Shown here piece by piece: positions 1,905 to 21,489 of a stretch of DNA of 24,000 nucleotides. The notes below the pieces were generated by a model, which made no database searches, had not been told where the DNA came from, and saw only the letters and a program-made list of their open reading frames with translations. This DNA is from an archaeon (GTDB taxonomy: Archaea > Nanobdellota > Nanobdellia > SCGC-AAA011-G17 > GW2011-AR20), in contig NYZO01000106.1 in the NCBI GenBank assembly GCA_002687185.1, positions 10,013-34,012 of the forward strand, read 5' to 3'. Numbering within the stretch: the first letter of the stretch is position 1; every line of letters starts with the position of its first letter. A program made the translations under genes and the position numbers.

Positions 1905-1974
1905 GTTTAGTAGCAGTGTCTCTTTGAAAATGTTTGAAAAAGGGTATTTGTTATAGTATGTGCATAGAAAAATA

Positions 1975-3036
1975 ATGATAGATATTCAAATTTTTAATAA
2001 GATCGATCAAGCGCTCATGGGTATAGGTAAAGGATTAAAACCCCTCTCTTATTCTGAACCGACTAATGAACCAGAACAAAAAAGAAAATTCTTAGATGGA
2101 ACTATTCGTAATCCTAGTTTTTTGTATAAAGAACTTGAATACGATCCACAAGATGTTAAGGAAAGACTAAATGCTATTGAGATTCCTGACGGAAAATTAG
2201 GTAAGGTTTACGAGAAAAAAAGAAGGAACGCATTGCTTGAGAATAAAATTATTATACATAGAGGAGATGAAGATATTGTTAGAGAGTCTACGATTTTAAT
2301 GCACGGCTCTCCAGACCGTGAACTCGTTGAATATGCGGATTCGTTATTATTAAAAATTGATCCTATAATAATTAAAACCCCTCTTACGTCTGACATTGCG
2401 AGGGATGCGCTACAACAAGCCTTATATGGAAATGGTTTGACTGATTGGACGACTGAACTTTCAAAAAAGAAATCGACAACTGTGTATACTGGTGAGAAAA
2501 AAATGACTGTGTGTGAGGACAGAAAATTTTCTGAAGGCGCTATTAAAAGATTAAAAGTGCATGACATTATACATGCTCTAAGAGGTGCAAACGGCTACGC
2601 GCAACCGCTTAGTATATTTGTCCTTGGATTTCCAGGATACATGTCAACTGAGGAAGGACTTACCACATACTTTGAACAAATAACAGGTAATTCTAATGAC
2701 CAAATGAAAAGAGAATATGCAGCAAGAGTTATAGCTGTTGATTCAGTTTGTCAAGGTTTAAACTTTAGACGGGCTTTTAACAGATTGAAAGATTATGGTT
2801 TAACTGATAATAAAGCATGGGACACTGCGGTTAGAACATATAGAGCTGGTGGATATGTGAAAGATCATGTGTATCTTCAAGGGAATAGACTGATTTACGA
2901 ATTCGTAGAAAATGGTGGAGATATTAAAGAGCTATTTGTAGGCAAAATTGGAATTGATGATCTTCCATTAGTTAGAAGGCTTAGAGAAAAAGGAATAGTC
3001 AAAGAGCCAGTATACCTTCCAAGTTTTTTAGAGTAA
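1975..3036 (+). CDS. DUF1704 / MATCAP-like (QEGLA-motif family) putative metallocarboxypeptidase
   Basis: The track ORF starts at GTG 1960; the first ATG is at 1975. VHDIIHALRGANGYAQP followed by STEEGLTTYFEQ resembles the HEIxxHxxRxxNGxxQP ... QEGLA signature recalled for this family. The first His is followed by Asp rather than Glu. Function assigned from memory of motifs only. Confidence 0.5.
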   Translation: MIDIQIFNKIDQALMGIGKGLKPLSYSEPTNEPEQKRKFLDGTIRNPSFLYKELEYDPQDVKERLNAIEIPDGKLGKVYEKKRRNALLENKIIIHRGDEDIVRESTILMHGSPDRELVEYADSLLLKIDPIIIKTPLTSDIARDALQQALYGNGLTDWTTELSKKKSTTVYTGEKKMTVCEDRKFSEGAIKRLKVHDIIHALRGANGYAQPLSIFVLGFPGYMSTEEGLTTYFEQITGNSNDQMKREYAARVIAVDSVCQGLNFRRAFNRLKDYGLTDNKAWDTAVRTYRAGGYVKDHVYLQGNRLIYEFVENGGDIKELFVGKIGIDDLPLVRRLREKGIVKEPVYLPSFLE

Positions 3037-3049
3037 AGTTCTTTCTTAC

Positions 3050-3289
3050 TTAGTAAAACTCTTCCTCGTCAGAACCTGAACTCTCTTCTACAATTTCTTT
3101 AGGCTTTTCAACAGAACTTTTTTCAACCAAAGGACGCTCTAAAACAACCGAATCTTTAGAATCGTTTTTATTAACTTGACCGCTCAAATCAGTCAAACGC
3201 TCGTCAATTTTTTCTAATTTCCATTTAATCTGGTCAAACTCCTCTTTCACCTTAGCAAACGCTTTTTTTAACCGCTCTTCATCAATCAT
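3050..3289 (-). CDS. Small coiled-coil protein with acidic C-terminal tail (...SSGSDEEEFY), coupled to gyrA
   Basis: The track ORF is 3050..3316. An internal ATG at 3289 gives an 8-nt overlap (ATGATTGA) with the gyrA stop, suggesting translational coupling. No recognisable domain. Confidence 0.5.
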   Translation of the reverse strand: MIDEERLKKAFAKVKEEFDQIKWKLEKIDERLTDLSGQVNKNDSKDSVVLERPLVEKSSVEKPKEIVEESSGSDEEEFY

Positions 3290-6152
3290 TTTTATTCTCC
3301 TTATTGTTTGCATCACTTGTATGATGTATTATACGCGCGATACATTTTACTTTGTCCTCTTTTCTAAGCTTCATAATACGCACACCTTGAGTGCTACGGC
3401 CCATAGTACGTACACTGGATGTTGCAATACGTATAACAATACCCTTAGCACTGGTTATTAATAGTTCATCGTGATCCATCACTGTCTTTATACCAACAAC
3501 AGAACCGTTTCTCTCACTCGTCTTAATATTAGTAACACCTTTCCCACCGCGTTTAATCAACCGATATTGGTCCATATTTGTACGTTTTCCAAAGCCGTTC
3601 TCAGTTATCGTAAACAGTGTAGCATCAGTTCTTGCAACTTCCAAACCAATAACAGCATCACCCTCCTTTAAACGAATACCGCGAACACCGCTTGCAGTAC
3701 GACCCATTTTCCTAACATCAGTACTTTTAAACTTAATAGCCATACCTTTTTGAGTACATAACATAAACTGTAATTGCTCTGTACTCAAACGAGTTGTAAC
3801 TAACTGATCATCGCCACGTAAATTAATAGCACGAATACCACGCTTCATTGGACGAGAAAAAGAGGTAAGAGGGGTTTGTTTTAATACACCGTTTTTGGTG
3901 GCCATCATAACAGATACACGCTCGTAAAACTTAGCCACTGGTAACATTGCCGTAACTTTCTCGTCAGGTTGCATATTAATCAAATTAACCAAAGCCTTAC
4001 CACGACTGTAACGAGAGCTTTCAGGGATCTTATAAGTCTTTAACCAATGTACTCTGCCTTGATTAGTAAACAATAATATATAATAATGGCTGCTTGAAGT
4101 GAAAATCTGCTCAACAACGTCTTCGTCTTTAGTTTTAGAACTCATAATACCGACGCCGCCTCTATTTTGTTGTTTATATTCCTCTAAAGATAAACGTTTC
4201 AAATAACCGTCTCTTGTACACATAACAACAACGTTTTCTTCTGCAATCAAATCCTCTACCTCAAAATCTTCTTCTGAATCAATAACTTCAGTCCTGCGCT
4301 CGTCACCGTACTTGTCTCTTAACTCGGTTAACTCAGTCTTAATAATACCGTAACGACGATCTTTTGAACCTAAAATATCTTTTAATTCTGTAACAAGTTT
4401 GACTAATTCAGTTTTCTCGTCAGCTAGTTTCTTAGTTTCTAAGTTAGTTAACCTCTGTAAGCGCATATCGAGAATTGCTAAGCTTTGTTTTTCTGACAAT
4501 TTAAACTGTTCAATCAACCCAGTCTTTGCAACAACTGCGTCAGCGCTTGCTCTAATAAGTTTTACAACAGCGTCAATGTTTTGCAAAGCAATAAGCAGTC
4601 CATCAACGATATGCATCCGGTCTTCAGCCTTTTCTAATTCGAACTTAGTACGCCTTGTAACAACACTAAAACGATGTTTAATAAATTCCTCTAGTAAGCC
4701 TTTCAAACCCATAATCTTAGGCGCATTGTCAACAATAGATAACATGTTAGCACCGAATGTTACTTGTAGTTGCGTGTTTTTAAACAGCTGATTGACAATG
4801 ATCTCTTGGTTTTCGTTCTTTTTTAATTCAATAACAACACGCATTCCTTTGCGATCACTTTCGTCGCGGATATCACGGATACCCTCAATGCGTTTTTCTT
4901 TAACTAAATTAGCAATAGATTCTATCAATGTGGTTTTATTTACCGCGTACGGTATCTCGTCAATTATAACACGGTTTGGCTCAAACGACGTTTTACCCCT
5001 AACTCTAATCTTACCACGGCCAGTTTGGTACGCTTGAATAAGACCGGATCTCCCACAAATGATGCCGCCAGTAGGAAAATCAGGGCCAATGATCGTTTTA
5101 ATCAATTCGTCAACGTTAATATCAGGATTGTCGATCAACTGAATTGTCGTGTCAACAACGTTGGTCAAATTATGAGGAGGGATATTAGTAGCCATGCCAA
5201 CAGCAATGCCAGAAGTGCCATTAAGCAATAAATTAGGAACTTTTGCTGGCAGCACAGACGGTTCTTTTAAACTCTCGTCAAAGTTAGGTACAAATTTAAC
5301 TGTTTTCTTATCAATATCTTGCAGCATCTCTTCGGCAATACGGGTCATCTTTGCTTCAGTATATCTCTGGTGTGCAGCTGTATCCCCGTCTACCGAATTG
5401 TGGACAAACACCCCTGACGCTAAGGCAAAGTTATGGGTTCCGTCGATTGTAAGATCATAGACGTCTTCTTTTTGATTAAGGTACTCAACTCTTATTACTT
5501 TGTGATTGTGAAGTTTGGCTTGTTTTATTTTTAAGGACATAAGCGAATCATCTTTTTTTAGATTCTGAGCTTCCTTGTAAGAACCATCTCGTAACATAAA
5601 TCTATGATCGGGTGTACATTTGATCTCTTCTTTGTTATTTAAAGTTACTTTTATTAAAGATGCTGATTTTTTCGTCAAACGTGGCTTTTTTATTTCACCA
5701 GTTTGAACGAGTCCCTGGCCAGTTACTGTATAAGTATAATTCTTCTTTCCTTGATTGAATTCCTTTACTAAGTCTTTGAAGGATAATTTTCTTCCATCTG
5801 TTAATTCAACTTTTGTGTCACCTGTGAAACAACCGAAATTTCCTTGTCCGTTTACTAAGGGATAACGAAGAGAAAAATCTTGAGCCATTCTTACTAAAGC
5901 GTCATATACCGCAAGATCTCCGTGTGGATGAAAACGACCCAAAGTATCTCCGACGATCCTAGCACACTTTTTAAACGACTTATTTGGTTGCAGACCAAGT
6001 TTCAACATGGTATATAGTATCCTGCGGTGTACAGGTTTCAATCCGTCACGAACATCGGGCAAGGCACGAGACATGATAACAGACATGGCATAATCAATAT
6101 ACGCTTCTTTCATTTCGTCTTCAATCGGTTTGATAATTAAGTTTTCTGCCAT
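3282..6152 (-). CDS. gyrA: DNA gyrase subunit A, intein-containing precursor (956 aa; 811 aa after splicing)
   Basis: Motifs [25 protein letters not shown]...[17 protein letters not shown], plus C-terminal beta-pinwheel repeats. The GNFG/S junction is interrupted by an intein. Confidence 0.96.
5397..5831 (-). mobile_element. Mini-intein (145 aa, no homing-endonuclease domain) in GyrA
   Basis: Begins CFTGDTKV (Cys1, codon 5831-5829). Block B is CTPDHRF (T-x-x-H), block F is [12 protein letters not shown]. It ends VFVHN (5399-5397) and is followed by Ser+1. Removing it restores the contiguous GQGNFG-SVDGD motif. Confidence 0.85.
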
Positions 6153-11692: not shown

Positions 11693-12427
11693 ATGAAAAA
11701 GGCCCATGACCATGTATATGACCTCATAACAGATGATAATGAGATTACTTGGCAAACGATATTACTCGATTTAGTCAAAAGTGAGCAAATGGATCCGTGG
11801 GATGTTAATCTGACTCTTCTAGCTCAAAAGTATCTGCAACGTGTAAAAGCAATGGAGGAGCTTAATTTCTTTGTATCAGGAAAAGTTGTTTTAGCATCCG
11901 CTCTACTCCTGAAAATGAAGTCTAATAAACTTTTGTTAGAACAGTTTCCTGCGTTTGATCAATTATTCGCGCAAGATGAAGAGATGCCTGAACATGAAGA
12001 GTTAATTGATGATGTGCCATTGCCACAAGCGTACGCACAAAAAGACATGAGGCTAACGATTAAAACACCTCAGACAAGAAAAAGAAAAGTTTCTGTAAAT
12101 GATCTTGTAGAAGCACTAAAACAAGCACTAGAAGTTGAGCAAAGACGAACGAATAGACTGATCCAACAAAAATCAATACCTGATAATCTAGTTGTGCCTG
12201 TAAAGAAAATGGATATAAACCTTTTAATCAAAGATTTGTATGGAAGGCTTAGAAATTTTCTTGGGAGCCAAAAACAAGTTACATTTACTAATTTAGTTAA
12301 TAGTGAAAAAAAAGAAGATAAAATAACGACGTTTATCCCATTGTTACATTTATCTAATCAAGATAAAGTACATTTAGAGCAGCCTAAACATTTTGAAGAG
12401 ATTTATGTGCAACTCAAAAAACGTTAA
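11693..12427 (+). CDS. scpA: Segregation and condensation protein A (ScpA kleisin)
   Basis: N-terminal ScpA signature (ILLDLVKSEQMDPWDVNLTLLAQKYL...FFVSGKVVLASALLLKMKS) and a C-terminal winged-helix-like region. The track start is GTG 11678. I prefer ATG 11693, which has an A/T-rich element ~20 nt upstream. Confidence 0.8.
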   Translation: MKKAHDHVYDLITDDNEITWQTILLDLVKSEQMDPWDVNLTLLAQKYLQRVKAMEELNFFVSGKVVLASALLLKMKSNKLLLEQFPAFDQLFAQDEEMPEHEELIDDVPLPQAYAQKDMRLTIKTPQTRKRKVSVNDLVEALKQALEVEQRRTNRLIQQKSIPDNLVVPVKKMDINLLIKDLYGRLRNFLGSQKQVTFTNLVNSEKKEDKITTFIPLLHLSNQDKVHLEQPKHFEEIYVQLKKR

Positions 12428-13710
12428 GTCGTAAATTTCGTCGTCAACTGTTTTAGTGTGCAATGCTCTTGACGACCGGTTTCCATATTTCTTAAGGTGA
12501 ATTTTTTGGATGCTATCTCTTTTGGACCTATCATTAACGCAAACGGAATACCTTTACTGTTGACGTAATCTAAATTTTTACTCGGACCACGACTCAATAA
12601 ATCAATGTCAGTGTTAATGCCTTTGTCACGTAATTGTTTGGCTAGTTTGAACGCTTCTTGTTTGACTTCGCCTATCGGGATAATAAAAATTTTCGTGCTT
12701 GTTTGCTCGGCCGTATCCTTCATAGCGGTTGCAATCGTTTCGAGTCCAAAACTAATACCAACGGTTGGGTACGGAGTTTTTGAGTCTAGGAATTTACCTA
12801 TCATTTTATCATAACGGCCACCTGCGCAAACTGAGGAAGTCACTTTATTGTTCTTTAAAAACCATTCAAACATAGTTCCTGTATAATAACCTAAACCGCG
12901 AGCTAACGTTAAGTTAATTGATACGTACTTGTCTAAGTCAAGTGCGCTAAGTAGACTGATTAACTCGTCTAATTCTGACGCGCCACTACGACTATCATCA
13001 TCTTTTAGTGTTTCTAATAAGTAGCTCACTGTTTTTTTATTCGTTGACTGTTCTTGTATGTTTTTGAAAACTTTAGTGATGACTTGTTTGTCTAAGCCGA
13101 TTGATTCTAGTTCTTTTTTGACTTTTGCTTGGCCTTGTTTTTTTAGTTTGTCAATGGTTAGAATTGTTGGCAGCATATCTTTTTCAAGCACTCCAGCTTG
13201 GCTTAGCAGGCCGATTAATACTTTACGGTTATTGATTTCTATTCGCACTGGAAGTCCTAATTGATTGAATGCATCAATTGTTAGTGCTAAACATTCTGCT
13301 TCTGCTTGCATATTACTTACACCAACAATGTCTGCGTCACATTGTGAGAATTCTCGCACTCTACCTAGTTTGATTGGTCCGTCACGAAACACTTTTCCTA
13401 TCTCGTACCTTTTGTATGGGAACTTCATGTTCGGGTTCATACCGATAAAGCGACAGAACGGGACTGTTAGATCATACCTTAAAGCTAAGTCACGTTTGCC
13501 TTGATCTTTTAATCTGTACGTCTCTTTTAGGATTTCGCTTCCGCCCGCGTCTTTAGACGATAAAATATTATAGTACGCAAGAGTAGGTGTCTCAAGCGGT
13601 TCAAATCCGAACTTTTCAAACGTTTTTTTCAATACGGTTACAATCCGGTTTTTTGTGAGCATCTCACGACCAGAATAATCGTTTGTTCCTTTTAGGTTTT
13701 GAAGTTTCAT
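12424..13710 (-). CDS. hisS: Histidyl-tRNA synthetase (archaeal/eukaryal type)
   Basis: LRYDLTVPFCRF, motif 2 FRDGPIKLGRVREFSQCDADIVG, motif 3 AGGRYD, and a C-terminal anticodon-binding domain. The start overlaps the upstream gene's stop as ATGA. Confidence 0.92.
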   Translation of the reverse strand: MKLQNLKGTNDYSGREMLTKNRIVTVLKKTFEKFGFEPLETPTLAYYNILSSKDAGGSEILKETYRLKDQGKRDLALRYDLTVPFCRFIGMNPNMKFPYKRYEIGKVFRDGPIKLGRVREFSQCDADIVGVSNMQAEAECLALTIDAFNQLGLPVRIEINNRKVLIGLLSQAGVLEKDMLPTILTIDKLKKQGQAKVKKELESIGLDKQVITKVFKNIQEQSTNKKTVSYLLETLKDDDSRSGASELDELISLLSALDLDKYVSINLTLARGLGYYTGTMFEWFLKNNKVTSSVCAGGRYDKMIGKFLDSKTPYPTVGISFGLETIATAMKDTAEQTSTKIFIIPIGEVKQEAFKLAKQLRDKGINTDIDLLSRGPSKNLDYVNSKGIPFALMIGPKEIASKKFTLRNMETGRQEHCTLKQLTTKFTT

Positions 13711-14762
13711 TGTGTTATCACCCCCGTACTGTTCTTTGCTCTTAAGCTTTGTGTTTTTTGGTTGGAGACGTCACGAATAAGATCTCCCCATGCAATATTA
13801 CTGTTCACCATCATCATTTGCATGACCCAAATCACCTGCTGTGCTTCTTCTATTATGTTCGTTCTGTCATTATTGGTGTACGCCTGGATAAGCTCAGCGC
13901 CTTCCTCGCCAAACTTTTTGACTAAACTATTATTGTCTCCTAACAAATTTGACGTCAGGGAGTTATCTATCGGTTGCTTTTTTCTTTGAGCAATTTGGTT
14001 GTATTGCATCTCCAGTGGATCATCCGTCGGTTGTTTGTCACTGACATCGTCGTCTTTTTGCCATGATGTGATAATACTTATATCACTTTGTCTAATCTCA
14101 TTGAGCACTTCCAGTTGCGGATCTCTTGGAAACTTTCTTTGGGTGTCATCATATTTTAAGGTGTTCCCACTCACTACAATTTCAATCCCACAATCTGCTC
14201 GTTCAGGTATTTCGTTCTCTAGCTTGCCGTTTAGAACCCGGATCTTAGCATAAGATAATCCGTATGTTTCAGCTAGTACATCGAGAAAGTCTCTTGCAGT
14301 ATATTCATATTTAGCATTAACAACTACGGTCAATGGTTTTTGAGCTAGCGCATCGTAGTTGGTCCCTTTTGCAGCAATAAAGCAGAGCGTTGGTCGTGAG
14401 TAGGTTGACGATCTATCCTTTATGATCCAATCAATAGTATCGACTAGGCGTAGTTTAGTATTGGATGTTCGTATTCTATATTCATCGAATAAATCATCTC
14501 CAGTGATTCCAAAGACAGGAACGCCACGTTCAGTAAATTCGTCACATAGCCCAGGAATATCTTCACCACGATATTTCAAAACTTCTATGTTATTATTCGT
14601 GCATACGTATCGATCAGAATCTTTTTGTTCTACCCCAAGGATCGTTAAAGGGTTAGGGTTCATTTGTGTAAACCCACTATTTCCGGGGACGAGTAATTTT
14701 TCTATCGATTCCAAATCTGCTCTTTTGACTAGGCGATAAAGTTTTTGTTGTATTAATCTCAT
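13707..14762 (-). CDS. hisGE: Fusion of short-form ATP phosphoribosyltransferase (HisG, ~aa 1-233) and phosphoribosyl-ATP pyrophosphohydrolase (HisE, ~aa 249-335)
   Basis: HisG-like motifs: YRGEDIPGLCDEFTERGVPVFGITGDDLFDEY, VVNAKYEYTARDFL and LNGKLENEIPERADCGIEIVVSGNTL (PRPP loop). After an acidic linker, the HisE-like region is LEMQYNQIAQRKKQPIDNSLTSNLLGDNNSLVKKFGEEGAELIQAY...IIEEAQQVIWVMQMMMV. Confidence 0.72.
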   Translation of the reverse strand: MRLIQQKLYRLVKRADLESIEKLLVPGNSGFTQMNPNPLTILGVEQKDSDRYVCTNNNIEVLKYRGEDIPGLCDEFTERGVPVFGITGDDLFDEYRIRTSNTKLRLVDTIDWIIKDRSSTYSRPTLCFIAAKGTNYDALAQKPLTVVVNAKYEYTARDFLDVLAETYGLSYAKIRVLNGKLENEIPERADCGIEIVVSGNTLKYDDTQRKFPRDPQLEVLNEIRQSDISIITSWQKDDDVSDKQPTDDPLEMQYNQIAQRKKQPIDNSLTSNLLGDNNSLVKKFGEEGAELIQAYTNNDRTNIIEEAQQVIWVMQMMMVNSNIAWGDLIRDVSNQKTQSLRAKNSTGVITQ

Positions 14763-14810
14763 TTTTCTGACCGCCCTTTAACTATTGAAATCAAAGTTAA
14801 ATAGTAACTG

Positions 14811-14861
14811 TCAATGAATACGACCAGTGCTTTGCACCTTAGCCTCAAGTTTTTGTTTCAT
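14811..14861 (-). CDS. Candidate 16-aa mini-ORF MKQKLEAKVQSTGRIH between tRNA-His and hisGE
   Basis: GGAGG lies 8 nt upstream of the ATG (GTGGAGGAATAAAAAATG). A paralogous copy sits at 15036-15101. Below the ORF-track size cutoff. Confidence 0.3.
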   Translation of the reverse strand: MKQKLEAKVQSTGRIH

Positions 14862-14905
14862 TTTTTATTCCTCCACGTTTTAAGCCCGCATGGCTTTTTT
14901 AATAG

Positions 14906-14977
14906 GGCAGAAGCCGGGGATTGAACCCGGTCCGCAAGCTCCACAGGCTTGCATGCTACCATTACACCACAACTACC
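14906..14977 (-). tRNA. tRNA-His (anticodon GUG), copy 1, with encoded G-1
   Basis: Hand-folded cloverleaf: G-1 | GTAGTTG | TG | GTGT-AATGGTA-GCAT | G | CAAGC-CTGTGGA-GCTTG | CGGA | CCGGG-TTCAATC-CCCGG | CTTCTGC | C73. All arms pair except U5-U68 and U6-U67. No CCA is encoded. Confidence 0.78.
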
Positions 14978-15035
14978 ATAAAATAGAAAACTAACTATAG
15001 AATTAATTGAATTTTTAAGAATTAAAGAGCAATAA

Positions 15036-21383: not shown

Positions 21384-21392
21384 TTTATAAAA
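21384..21392 (+). promoter_or_regulatory. TATA box for tRNA-His copy 2
   Basis: TTTATAAAA centred ~29 nt upstream of the tRNA 5' end at 21417. Confidence 0.5.
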
Positions 21393-21416
21393 TATTATAT
21401 TCTATTTTTCTATCAT

Positions 21417-21489
21417 GGCGGTTGTAGTATAGTGGTTAGTATACAAGACTGTGGCTCTTGGGACCCGGGTTCGATTCCCGGCTTCCGCC
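21417..21489 (+). tRNA. tRNA-His (anticodon GUG), copy 2, with encoded G-1
   Basis: Hand-folded cloverleaf: G-1 | GCGGTTG | TA | GTAT-AGTGGTTA-GTAT | A | CAAGA-CTGTGGC-TCTTG | GGAC | CCGGG-TTCGATT-CCCGG | CTTCCGC | C73. The same U5-U68 and U6-U67 mismatches occur as in copy 1. Confidence 0.82.

Follow-up and report, generated by a model that had tools for sequence, protein, structure and literature searches.

A tandem U·U mismatch carried by the acceptor stem in tRNA-His genes from DPANN archaea

Both tRNA-His genes in the stretch of archaeal DNA analysed here (the window, 24,000 nucleotides) carry the same tandem of U·U mismatches, U5·U68 and U6·U67, in the acceptor stem. The two loci are probably genuine, working tRNA-His genes. 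On the sequence evidence, we favour the reading that the tandem is a non-Watson-Crick element kept by selection, the local form of a tRNA-His signature of DPANN archaea. The mismatch is peculiar to tRNA-His and, within it, to positions 5:68 and 6:67; it is of the pyrimidine·pyrimidine type, is limited to certain DPANN lineages and lies beside pairs that covary.

The only tRNA genes that ARAGORN calls in the window are two for tRNA-His(GUG), which Rfam RF00005 matches as well. Copy A lies on the minus strand at 14977-14906, with G-1 at 14977 and C73 at 14906, and copy B on the plus strand at 21417-21489, with G-1 at 21417 and C73 at 21489. The acceptor strands are GUAGUUG/CUUCUGC in copy A (U5 = 14972, U6 = 14971, U67 = 14912, U68 = 14911) and GCGGUUG/CUUCCGC in copy B (U5 = 21422, U6 = 21423, U67 = 21483, U68 = 21484). 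The RF00005 match is full-length in both copies (model positions 1-71 of 71) and scores 48.8 bits for copy A and 57.9 bits for copy B, the gathering score being 29; a tRNA-His covariance model built here, R1, gives 79.9 and 87.4 bits, respectively. According to ARAGORN the anticodon is gtg in both copies, and it is carried in 7-nt loops, CUGUGGA and CUGUGGC. A G-1 opposite C73 is encoded in the genome in both genes, and CCA is encoded in neither.

Neither copy has the fully base-paired acceptor helix that is expected of a prokaryotic tRNA-His. In the Infernal alignment the non-standard pairs are exactly 5:68 and 6:67 in both copies, with the U·U at 6:67 closed by G7-C66 and a standard 4:69 pair. 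All the other stems pair in A and B, and the loss of constraint or of conserved loop nucleotides that marks a pseudogene is seen in neither. The copies are 79.5% identical overall; pair 2:71 is U·G in copy A and C-G in copy B, and pair 3:70 is A-U in copy A and G-C in copy B. An earlier note on this DNA had placed the two genes at these coordinates, with G-1:C73 and the tandem in both, with pairs 2:71 and 3:70 that differ between the copies yet stay paired, and with diverged D and anticodon stems, and ARAGORN, Rfam/Infernal and the sequence comparison agree with it in all of this. It had also allowed that a covariance model might move the acceptor boundaries so as to give full pairing; Infernal keeps the same boundaries, and no alternative register restores pairing.

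The source genome is a metagenome-assembled genome (MAG) of 1.58 Mb in 119 contigs, 86.65% complete and with 4.95% contamination, and the window, with both tRNA-His genes, lies on a single one of these contigs (C106). The genomes of relatives measure 0.4-1.1 Mb, and related records are labelled Woesearchaeota or Nanoarchaeota. The window also encodes an archaeal eIF2-gamma, gyrase, HisRS and a class I synthetase of the Trp/Tyr family (Pfam tRNA-synt_1b). Its GyrA gene (3282-6152, minus strand) contains an intein (Pfam Intein_splicing, residues 117-252), and a 358-aa protein encoded at 1960-3036 on the plus strand matches the MATCAP family (PF08014, E = 6e-49), the microtubule-associated tyrosine carboxypeptidase, which is unexpected in a DPANN archaeon. 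Two other contigs, C25 and C62, carry clusters of CCA-encoding, bacterial-looking tRNA genes, so the bin is not pure; several isoacceptors are duplicated.

Among the 47 tRNAs that ARAGORN finds in this genome, non-standard acceptor pairs occur only in the two tRNA-His and in one doubtful tRNA-Met call, and none occur among 27 non-His tRNAs of related loci. With the rest of the genome's tRNAs clean, bar the doubtful tRNA-Met, chance is no explanation for the mismatches. Decay through genome reduction is likewise rejected, since the other tRNAs are unaffected both among the genome's 47, that one tRNA-Met apart, and in the related loci (0/27). A third tRNA-His was found neither by ARAGORN nor by model R1 in this 86.65% complete genome.

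Downstream of copy A, in the same orientation, come a 351-aa open reading frame (13707..14762, minus strand) with HisG-like and PRA-PH (HisE) domains (PF01634, 26.6 bits; PF01503, 36.2 bits) and then hisS (12424..13710, minus strand; PF13393, 145 bits, and HGTP_anticodon, 65 bits), the whole arrangement covering 12424-14977 of the window. Copy B does not adjoin hisS. In a tblastn search hisS is present in 60 tRNA-His loci (loci L006-L113), and its start lies no more than 400 nt downstream, on the same strand, in 38 of 87 tRNA-His genes, paired and mismatched alike. Upstream of copy B, a TATA-like box, TTTATAAA (21384..21391, plus strand), is found 33 to 26 nt before G-1. It is a putative archaeal promoter, from which transcription would start at or just before G-1. 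TATA-like hexamers in 85 tRNA-His loci concentrate at 30-36 nt before G-1, and in 81 of the 85 the G-1 is preceded by A-3 U-2, giving 'ATG' (14978-14979 and 21415-21416 in the window). This arrangement suggests that the 5' leaders of these tRNA-His are very short or absent. The same AT before position +1 is seen in many of the genome's other tRNAs (27 counted, with A at -2 in 18 and U at -1 in 13), so that G-1 takes the place of the first nucleotide. A translated mini-ORF starting from the ATG was considered and rejected as a general feature: an upstream GGAGG occurs in only 7 of the 85 loci, and the peptides mirror the tRNA sequence.

The distribution of the tandem was determined with a pattern scan of one genome per species, covering 185,579 species, in which the pattern consisted of U5 U6 G7 U8, G10, A14, the CUGUGG loop, the T-loop and C66 U67 U68. 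It returned 68 loci, namely 59 true tRNA-His with the tandem and 9 chance matches that are not tRNAs and whose flanks do not pair (in Leeuwenhoekiella, one Flavobacteriaceae MAG, Mesorhizobium and one Chloroflexota). In all 59, G-1 is present, pairs 1-4 and 7 are standard, and 5:68 and 6:67 form the tandem U·U. Their labels are Woesearchaeota (23), Pacearchaeota (17) and Nanoarchaeota (14), with one each for Micrarchaeota, Parvarchaeum, an uncultured archaeon, Saccharibacteria and Methanosarcinales, and the last two records look like DPANN contigs in foreign bins. The tandem is restricted to DPANN, with 59 of 59 loci in DPANN-labelled MAGs or in likely misbinned contigs. ARAGORN called a tRNA-His in only 33 of these 59 mismatched loci (L041-L108) and was therefore dropped as sole detector; regular expressions and Infernal were used instead. 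Automatic annotation may thus report DPANN genomes as being without tRNA-His, as ARAGORN misses about half.

These 59 loci, which were chosen by the motif itself, represent 58 different sequences. Beside the fixed U·U, pair 4:69 is G-C in 39, A-U in 18 and U-A in one of the 58; pair 2:71 is C-G in 52 and U-A in 6, and pair 3:70 is G-C in 55, A-U in two and C-G in one. Structural constraint was assessed on 65 matches (64 distinct sequences) aligned to the model, a motif-selected set; its large share of mismatches follows from that selection, which does not account for the covariation at the other pairs. Each of the remaining 19 pairs is formed in 98-100% of the sequences, with 99.6-100% per helix, the D, anticodon and T helices each having 99.6-99.7% of their cells paired, and changes on both sides are seen in 18 of 21 pairs among the 64 distinct tRNA-His. 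The covariation score is 0.54, compared with 0.19 for shuffled sequences and at most 0.13 with partners slid. By nearest-neighbour calculation the tandem costs about 4.6 kcal/mol relative to two U-A pairs, and the 8-bp helix should form nonetheless, with predicted energies of -6.4 and -9.9 kcal/mol.

A second pattern, in which the acceptor stem was left free, was applied to 401 genomes drawn evenly from the class and listed 149 tRNA-His, an undercount as are all pattern-based totals given here, since the CTGTGG pattern misses tRNA-His with U32 (TTGTGG). Non-standard pairs make up 39 of the 1,043 acceptor pairs in this sample; U·U at 5:68 or 6:67 accounts for 36 of these, and A·C elsewhere for the remaining three. 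In one family, f44, mismatches are present in 17 of 18 tRNA-His, versus 5 of 131 in all other families, the five being the window's two and those of genomes G187, G169 and G476. Family f44 is Pacearchaeota-labelled, and one of its genomes (G406) shares the sequence of a Pacearchaeota record (locus L093).

A deeper sample of f44, made up of 151 genomes at least 85% complete and five near-complete ones, yielded 43 tRNA-His, that is, those reachable by the patterns or via the five follow-up genomes. Pair 6:67 is U·U in 36 of them, C·C or C·U in two and standard in five. Pair 5:68 is more variable, with U·U in 23, A-U in 11, U-A in four, U·C in two, and A·C, G·U and C-G in one each. One or both of the two pairs are non-standard in 39 of 43 (91%). 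The five near-complete genomes (95-100%) that the CTGTGG pattern left unmatched have the loop UUGUGG and a single tRNA-His each, mismatched in all five (5/5), and because it is the only copy in near-complete genomes, the mismatched tRNA-His must serve translation in this family. Since 5:68 can be either U·U or A-U, the tandem represents one form of a wider signature: what is conserved is a pyrimidine·pyrimidine pair at 6:67, nearly always U·U, and the tandem is the commonest variant. This signature is the norm in f44, which is one part of DPANN.

Other departures from the usual acceptor end were noted in the same material. The discriminator is U73, giving a G-1·U73 wobble, in 21 of the 43 tRNA-His of f44 (also in L047, L049, L054 and others), and genes in this state group within particular HisRS clades. 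A G-1·U73 pair weakens histidine identity in E. coli (PMC9976931). In the tRNA-His of two genomes (G205 and G214) an A1·C72 mismatch lies directly below G-1:C73.

The genome of the window falls outside f44, in family f1 of another order. BLAST with the tRNA over 41 relatives gave 5 matches beyond its own genome and was too insensitive; it was replaced by model R1 and IUPAC patterns. Model R1 was run on 27 genomes of f1, the window's included. Among the best R1 matches, a single U6·U67 is present in G007 (GCGGAUG/CUUCCGC) and in G018 (GCGAAUG/CUUUCGC), G014 and G041 are fully paired (GCGGUUG/CAAUCGC), and the remaining recovered f1 genomes have various acceptor strands, all paired. In the order as a whole the tandem pattern occurs in 4 of 240 genomes (the window's, G045, G185 and G187). 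It is therefore sporadic in the window's own, Woesearchaeota-like order and not clade-wide there. The suggestion made in the earlier note that the mismatch is a lineage feature holds for the Pacearchaeota-labelled f44, where it is clade-wide (39/43), and does not hold for the order to which the window belongs (4/240).

The mismatched state seems to have arisen more than once. The body of copy A is closest (86%) to a mismatched tRNA-His that adjoins hisS in locus L050 (G185, same order), and the body of copy B is closest (88-89%) to the fully paired tRNA-His of G094 and G102, also of the same order; one of the latter genes has the same 5' strand as copy B, GCGGUUG, facing CAAUCGC. The window thus adds a genome outside f44 with two diverged tandem copies that have different nearest relatives. 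A tree of 53 HisRS proteins encoded beside tRNA-His contains three clades: in a Pace-type clade 31 of 35 rows have the tandem, in a Woese-type clade 12 of 15 rows are paired and three (the window, L042 and L050) have the tandem, and the third clade is small. The HisRS of the window is of the Woese type. At least four changes of tandem state are needed on this tree, the sample of which is biased to mismatched loci and informs on repeated origin, not on frequency.

Some relatives combine both states. G187 has two tRNA-His with identical bodies and acceptors that differ at four positions (GCAGUUG/CUUCUGU versus ACAGUAG/CUAUUGU), which suggests either that both forms are maintained or that gene conversion has acted on the body alone. 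The two genes correspond to 4456-4527 and 5142-5213 of L042 (minus strand), about 600 nt apart, and the paired form has A1-U72. In G185 as in G187, a further tRNA-His gene, which is fully paired, lies some 600 nt upstream of the mismatched copy. In three genomes of family f1 (L011, L013 and L024, from G019, G007 and G008) a Pace-type HisRS adjoins the tRNA-His, which may reflect transfer of a tRNA-His/hisS cassette between orders.

HisRS, RNase P and Thg1 were considered as candidate readers of the element. The proposal of the earlier note that Thg1 might play a part in some lineages seems unlikely to apply here: with Methanosarcina acetivorans as a positive control, no member of the Thg1 family (PF04446) was found in five mismatch-bearing genomes, that of the window (G000, 86.65% complete), G187, G371, G269 and G406. 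RNase P RNA is present in the last four of these at 84-128 bits and was not found in the 86.65% complete genome of the window, and an absence of RNase P as in Nanoarchaeum equitans is rejected, with the RNA in four of five mismatch-bearing genomes. In G187 the RNase P RNA gene (contig C2, 55856-56156) lies 2.6 kb from the two tRNA-His genes. RNase P chooses its site on pre-tRNA-His according to the N-1:N73 pair and to a measurement taken from the T arm (PMC3035440).

For HisRS, a low-power scan found no residue common to the mismatch-bearing Woese-type members and absent from the paired ones. Convergence of HisRS residues was also considered and rejected; the window's HisRS agrees with the Pace-type majority at seven conservative positions, none of which is shared by L042 or L050. 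In the window's order, the HisRS enzymes of close relatives work with tRNA-His that is fully paired, and an enzyme of this type therefore does not need the mismatch. In Thermus thermophilus, HisRS contacts only G-1 and G1 at the 5' end and C68-A76 on the 3' strand (PMC4357726), which would put U68 at the edge of the footprint, since the contacts run from C68.

Tandem U·U pairs with suitable closing pairs are stable and helical, with two hydrogen bonds each, and have a shorter C1'-C1' distance and two narrowed grooves; they can act as recognition sites (PMC11194097). The tandem of the window resembles such motifs of structured RNAs in being 5'-UU-3'/3'-UU-5' closed by G-C, and by analogy with them it is expected to form two-hydrogen-bond U·U pairs within a continuous helix with narrowed grooves. 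With G4-C69 and G7-C66 as closing pairs, the two stacked U·U probably leave the 8-bp acceptor helix (G-1:C73 and seven further pairs) continuous and at the same time make it narrower and softer at this point, four to five pairs below the identity pair G-1:C73. This local geometry would then probably be read by a partner that treats tRNA-His unlike all other tRNAs. The most likely partner would be HisRS, and the second candidate would be RNase P, which would have to cut one nucleotide early to keep G-1. The element is costly, position-specific and present in the only tRNA-His of many species, and because of this it is probably read by a factor that gives tRNA-His special treatment. HisRS and RNase P are both plausible readers, and selection itself is what we infer from the sequences.

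A more specific and more tentative proposal sees in U6·U67, alone or joined by U5·U68, a new lineage-specific determinant for the tRNA-His of Pace-/Woesearchaeota, either a HisRS identity element or a feature for RNase P cleavage at -1; this is possible, and we would not put it higher than that. In the identity version, the linked HisRS would read the 3' strand near position 68, and in the processing version the feature would make the protein-rich archaeal RNase P cut at -1, so that the encoded G-1 is retained. The second mismatch, at 5:68, switches freely between U·U and A-U and so may be neutral. If the proposal were true, this would be the first internal pyrimidine·pyrimidine identity or processing element described in an acceptor stem.

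The most serious rival, which we consider plausible but doubtful, is that the mismatch is a tolerated, near-neutral weak spot: the eighth pair, G-1:C73, would buffer U·U, the mildest of mismatches, nothing would read it, and AT-biased mutation combined with weak selection in small symbiont genomes would have fixed it. The switching of 5:68 within f44 between U·U (23), A-U (11) and U-A (4) fits such tolerance, as does the occurrence of fully paired tRNA-His in 4 of 43 cases in f44 and in most of the window's order, where pairing is evidently viable; HisRS co-variation was not found in the low-power scan, and with a predicted -6.4 and -9.9 kcal/mol the helix would still form. Against this, U6·U67 (36/43 in f44) is as conserved as the Watson-Crick pairs that surround it, and 4:69 and 2:71 show double substitutions. 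Tolerance should also have let in other kinds of mismatch, yet these are nearly absent, the mismatches being almost exclusively pyrimidine·pyrimidine at two positions (36/39). The mismatched state arose several times, as seen from the HisRS tree and from the nearest relatives of the two copies, and it carries a predicted cost of 4.6 kcal/mol. The view of the earlier note that the mismatch is kept by selection rather than left by decay is well supported by these comparative data, that is, by the species scan, by f44 and by the covariation.

The mismatched genes might also be non-decoding, as tRNA-like leaders of hisS operons or as pseudogenes, which is very unlikely. It would account for the position of tRNA-His upstream of hisS on the same strand in many loci and for the second, paired tRNA-His of G185 and G187 some 600 nt upstream of the mismatched one. 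However, near-complete f44 genomes have the mismatched gene only, and the genome of the window only its two; the full cloverleaf covaries, and the GUG anticodon loop, the T-loop and G-1 are conserved. Copy B stands apart from hisS, and paired tRNA-His are equally hisS-linked. It is scarcely credible, finally, that the mismatch exists in the DNA only, the mature tRNA having its pairing restored or substituted through RNA editing or a base modification at U5/U6 or U67/U68. Archaeal tRNAs are known to undergo C-to-U editing. A standard pair would need U-to-A here, and U-to-C still leaves no pair; we know of no editing system that converts U·U to a standard pair. Thg1-like 5' repair reaches only positions 1-3, and Thg1 was not found in the five genomes searched. 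Nothing direct speaks for editing; acceptor stems are known to be edited in organelles (PMC4284800).

A comparison of the element with known systems places it among several partial likenesses. The window's tRNA-His share with the canonical prokaryotic ones of E. coli and Thermus thermophilus the GUG anticodon, the encoded G-1:C73, the lack of Thg1 and normal D, anticodon and T arms, and differ from them in having two U·U among the eight acceptor pairs, and their relatives often have U73 (21/43 in f44). As with the G3·U70 of tRNA-Ala, a non-canonical acceptor pair occurs in one tRNA species and is flanked by covarying Watson-Crick pairs. In contrast to G3·U70, which is universal and experimentally proven, the element is of the pyrimidine·pyrimidine type, lies deeper (6:67 and 5:68) and is found in some DPANN only, and its function is putative. 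A lineage-specific rewrite of the acceptor end of tRNA-His is also known from the alphaproteobacterial Caulobacter clade, in which G-1 is missing, position 73 is A and the motif 2 loop of HisRS co-varies (PMC9976931, PMC3064791); unlike there, G-1 is kept here and HisRS co-variation was not detected. The DPANN archaeon Nanoarchaeum equitans has a leaderless tRNA-His with a 5'-triphosphate on G-1 and no RNase P (PMC10100707). It resembles the present case in its encoded G-1 and in a promoter-like box at a fixed distance, which here goes with A-3 U-2 before G-1, and differs in that RNase P RNA is present here in four of the five mismatch-bearing genomes checked; U·U pairs are not mentioned for N. 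equitans in its study (PMC10100707).

A review of tRNA identity lists G-1, C73 and the anticodon for histidine, together with the alphaproteobacterial exception, and an internal acceptor mismatch for tRNA-His is absent from it (PMC9976931). Neither in the literature on Pacearchaeota/DPANN tRNAs nor in that on tandem U·U in acceptor stems did we find a published description of the element. In textbooks, tRNA-His exemplifies an identity set at the extreme end of the acceptor helix, by G-1:C73. To this is now added a conserved mismatch deeper in the helix, in one tRNA species of a large group of uncultivated, host-dependent archaea, and with it a concrete hypothesis on how HisRS or RNase P may handle an unusual 8-bp helix, which is testable in vitro.
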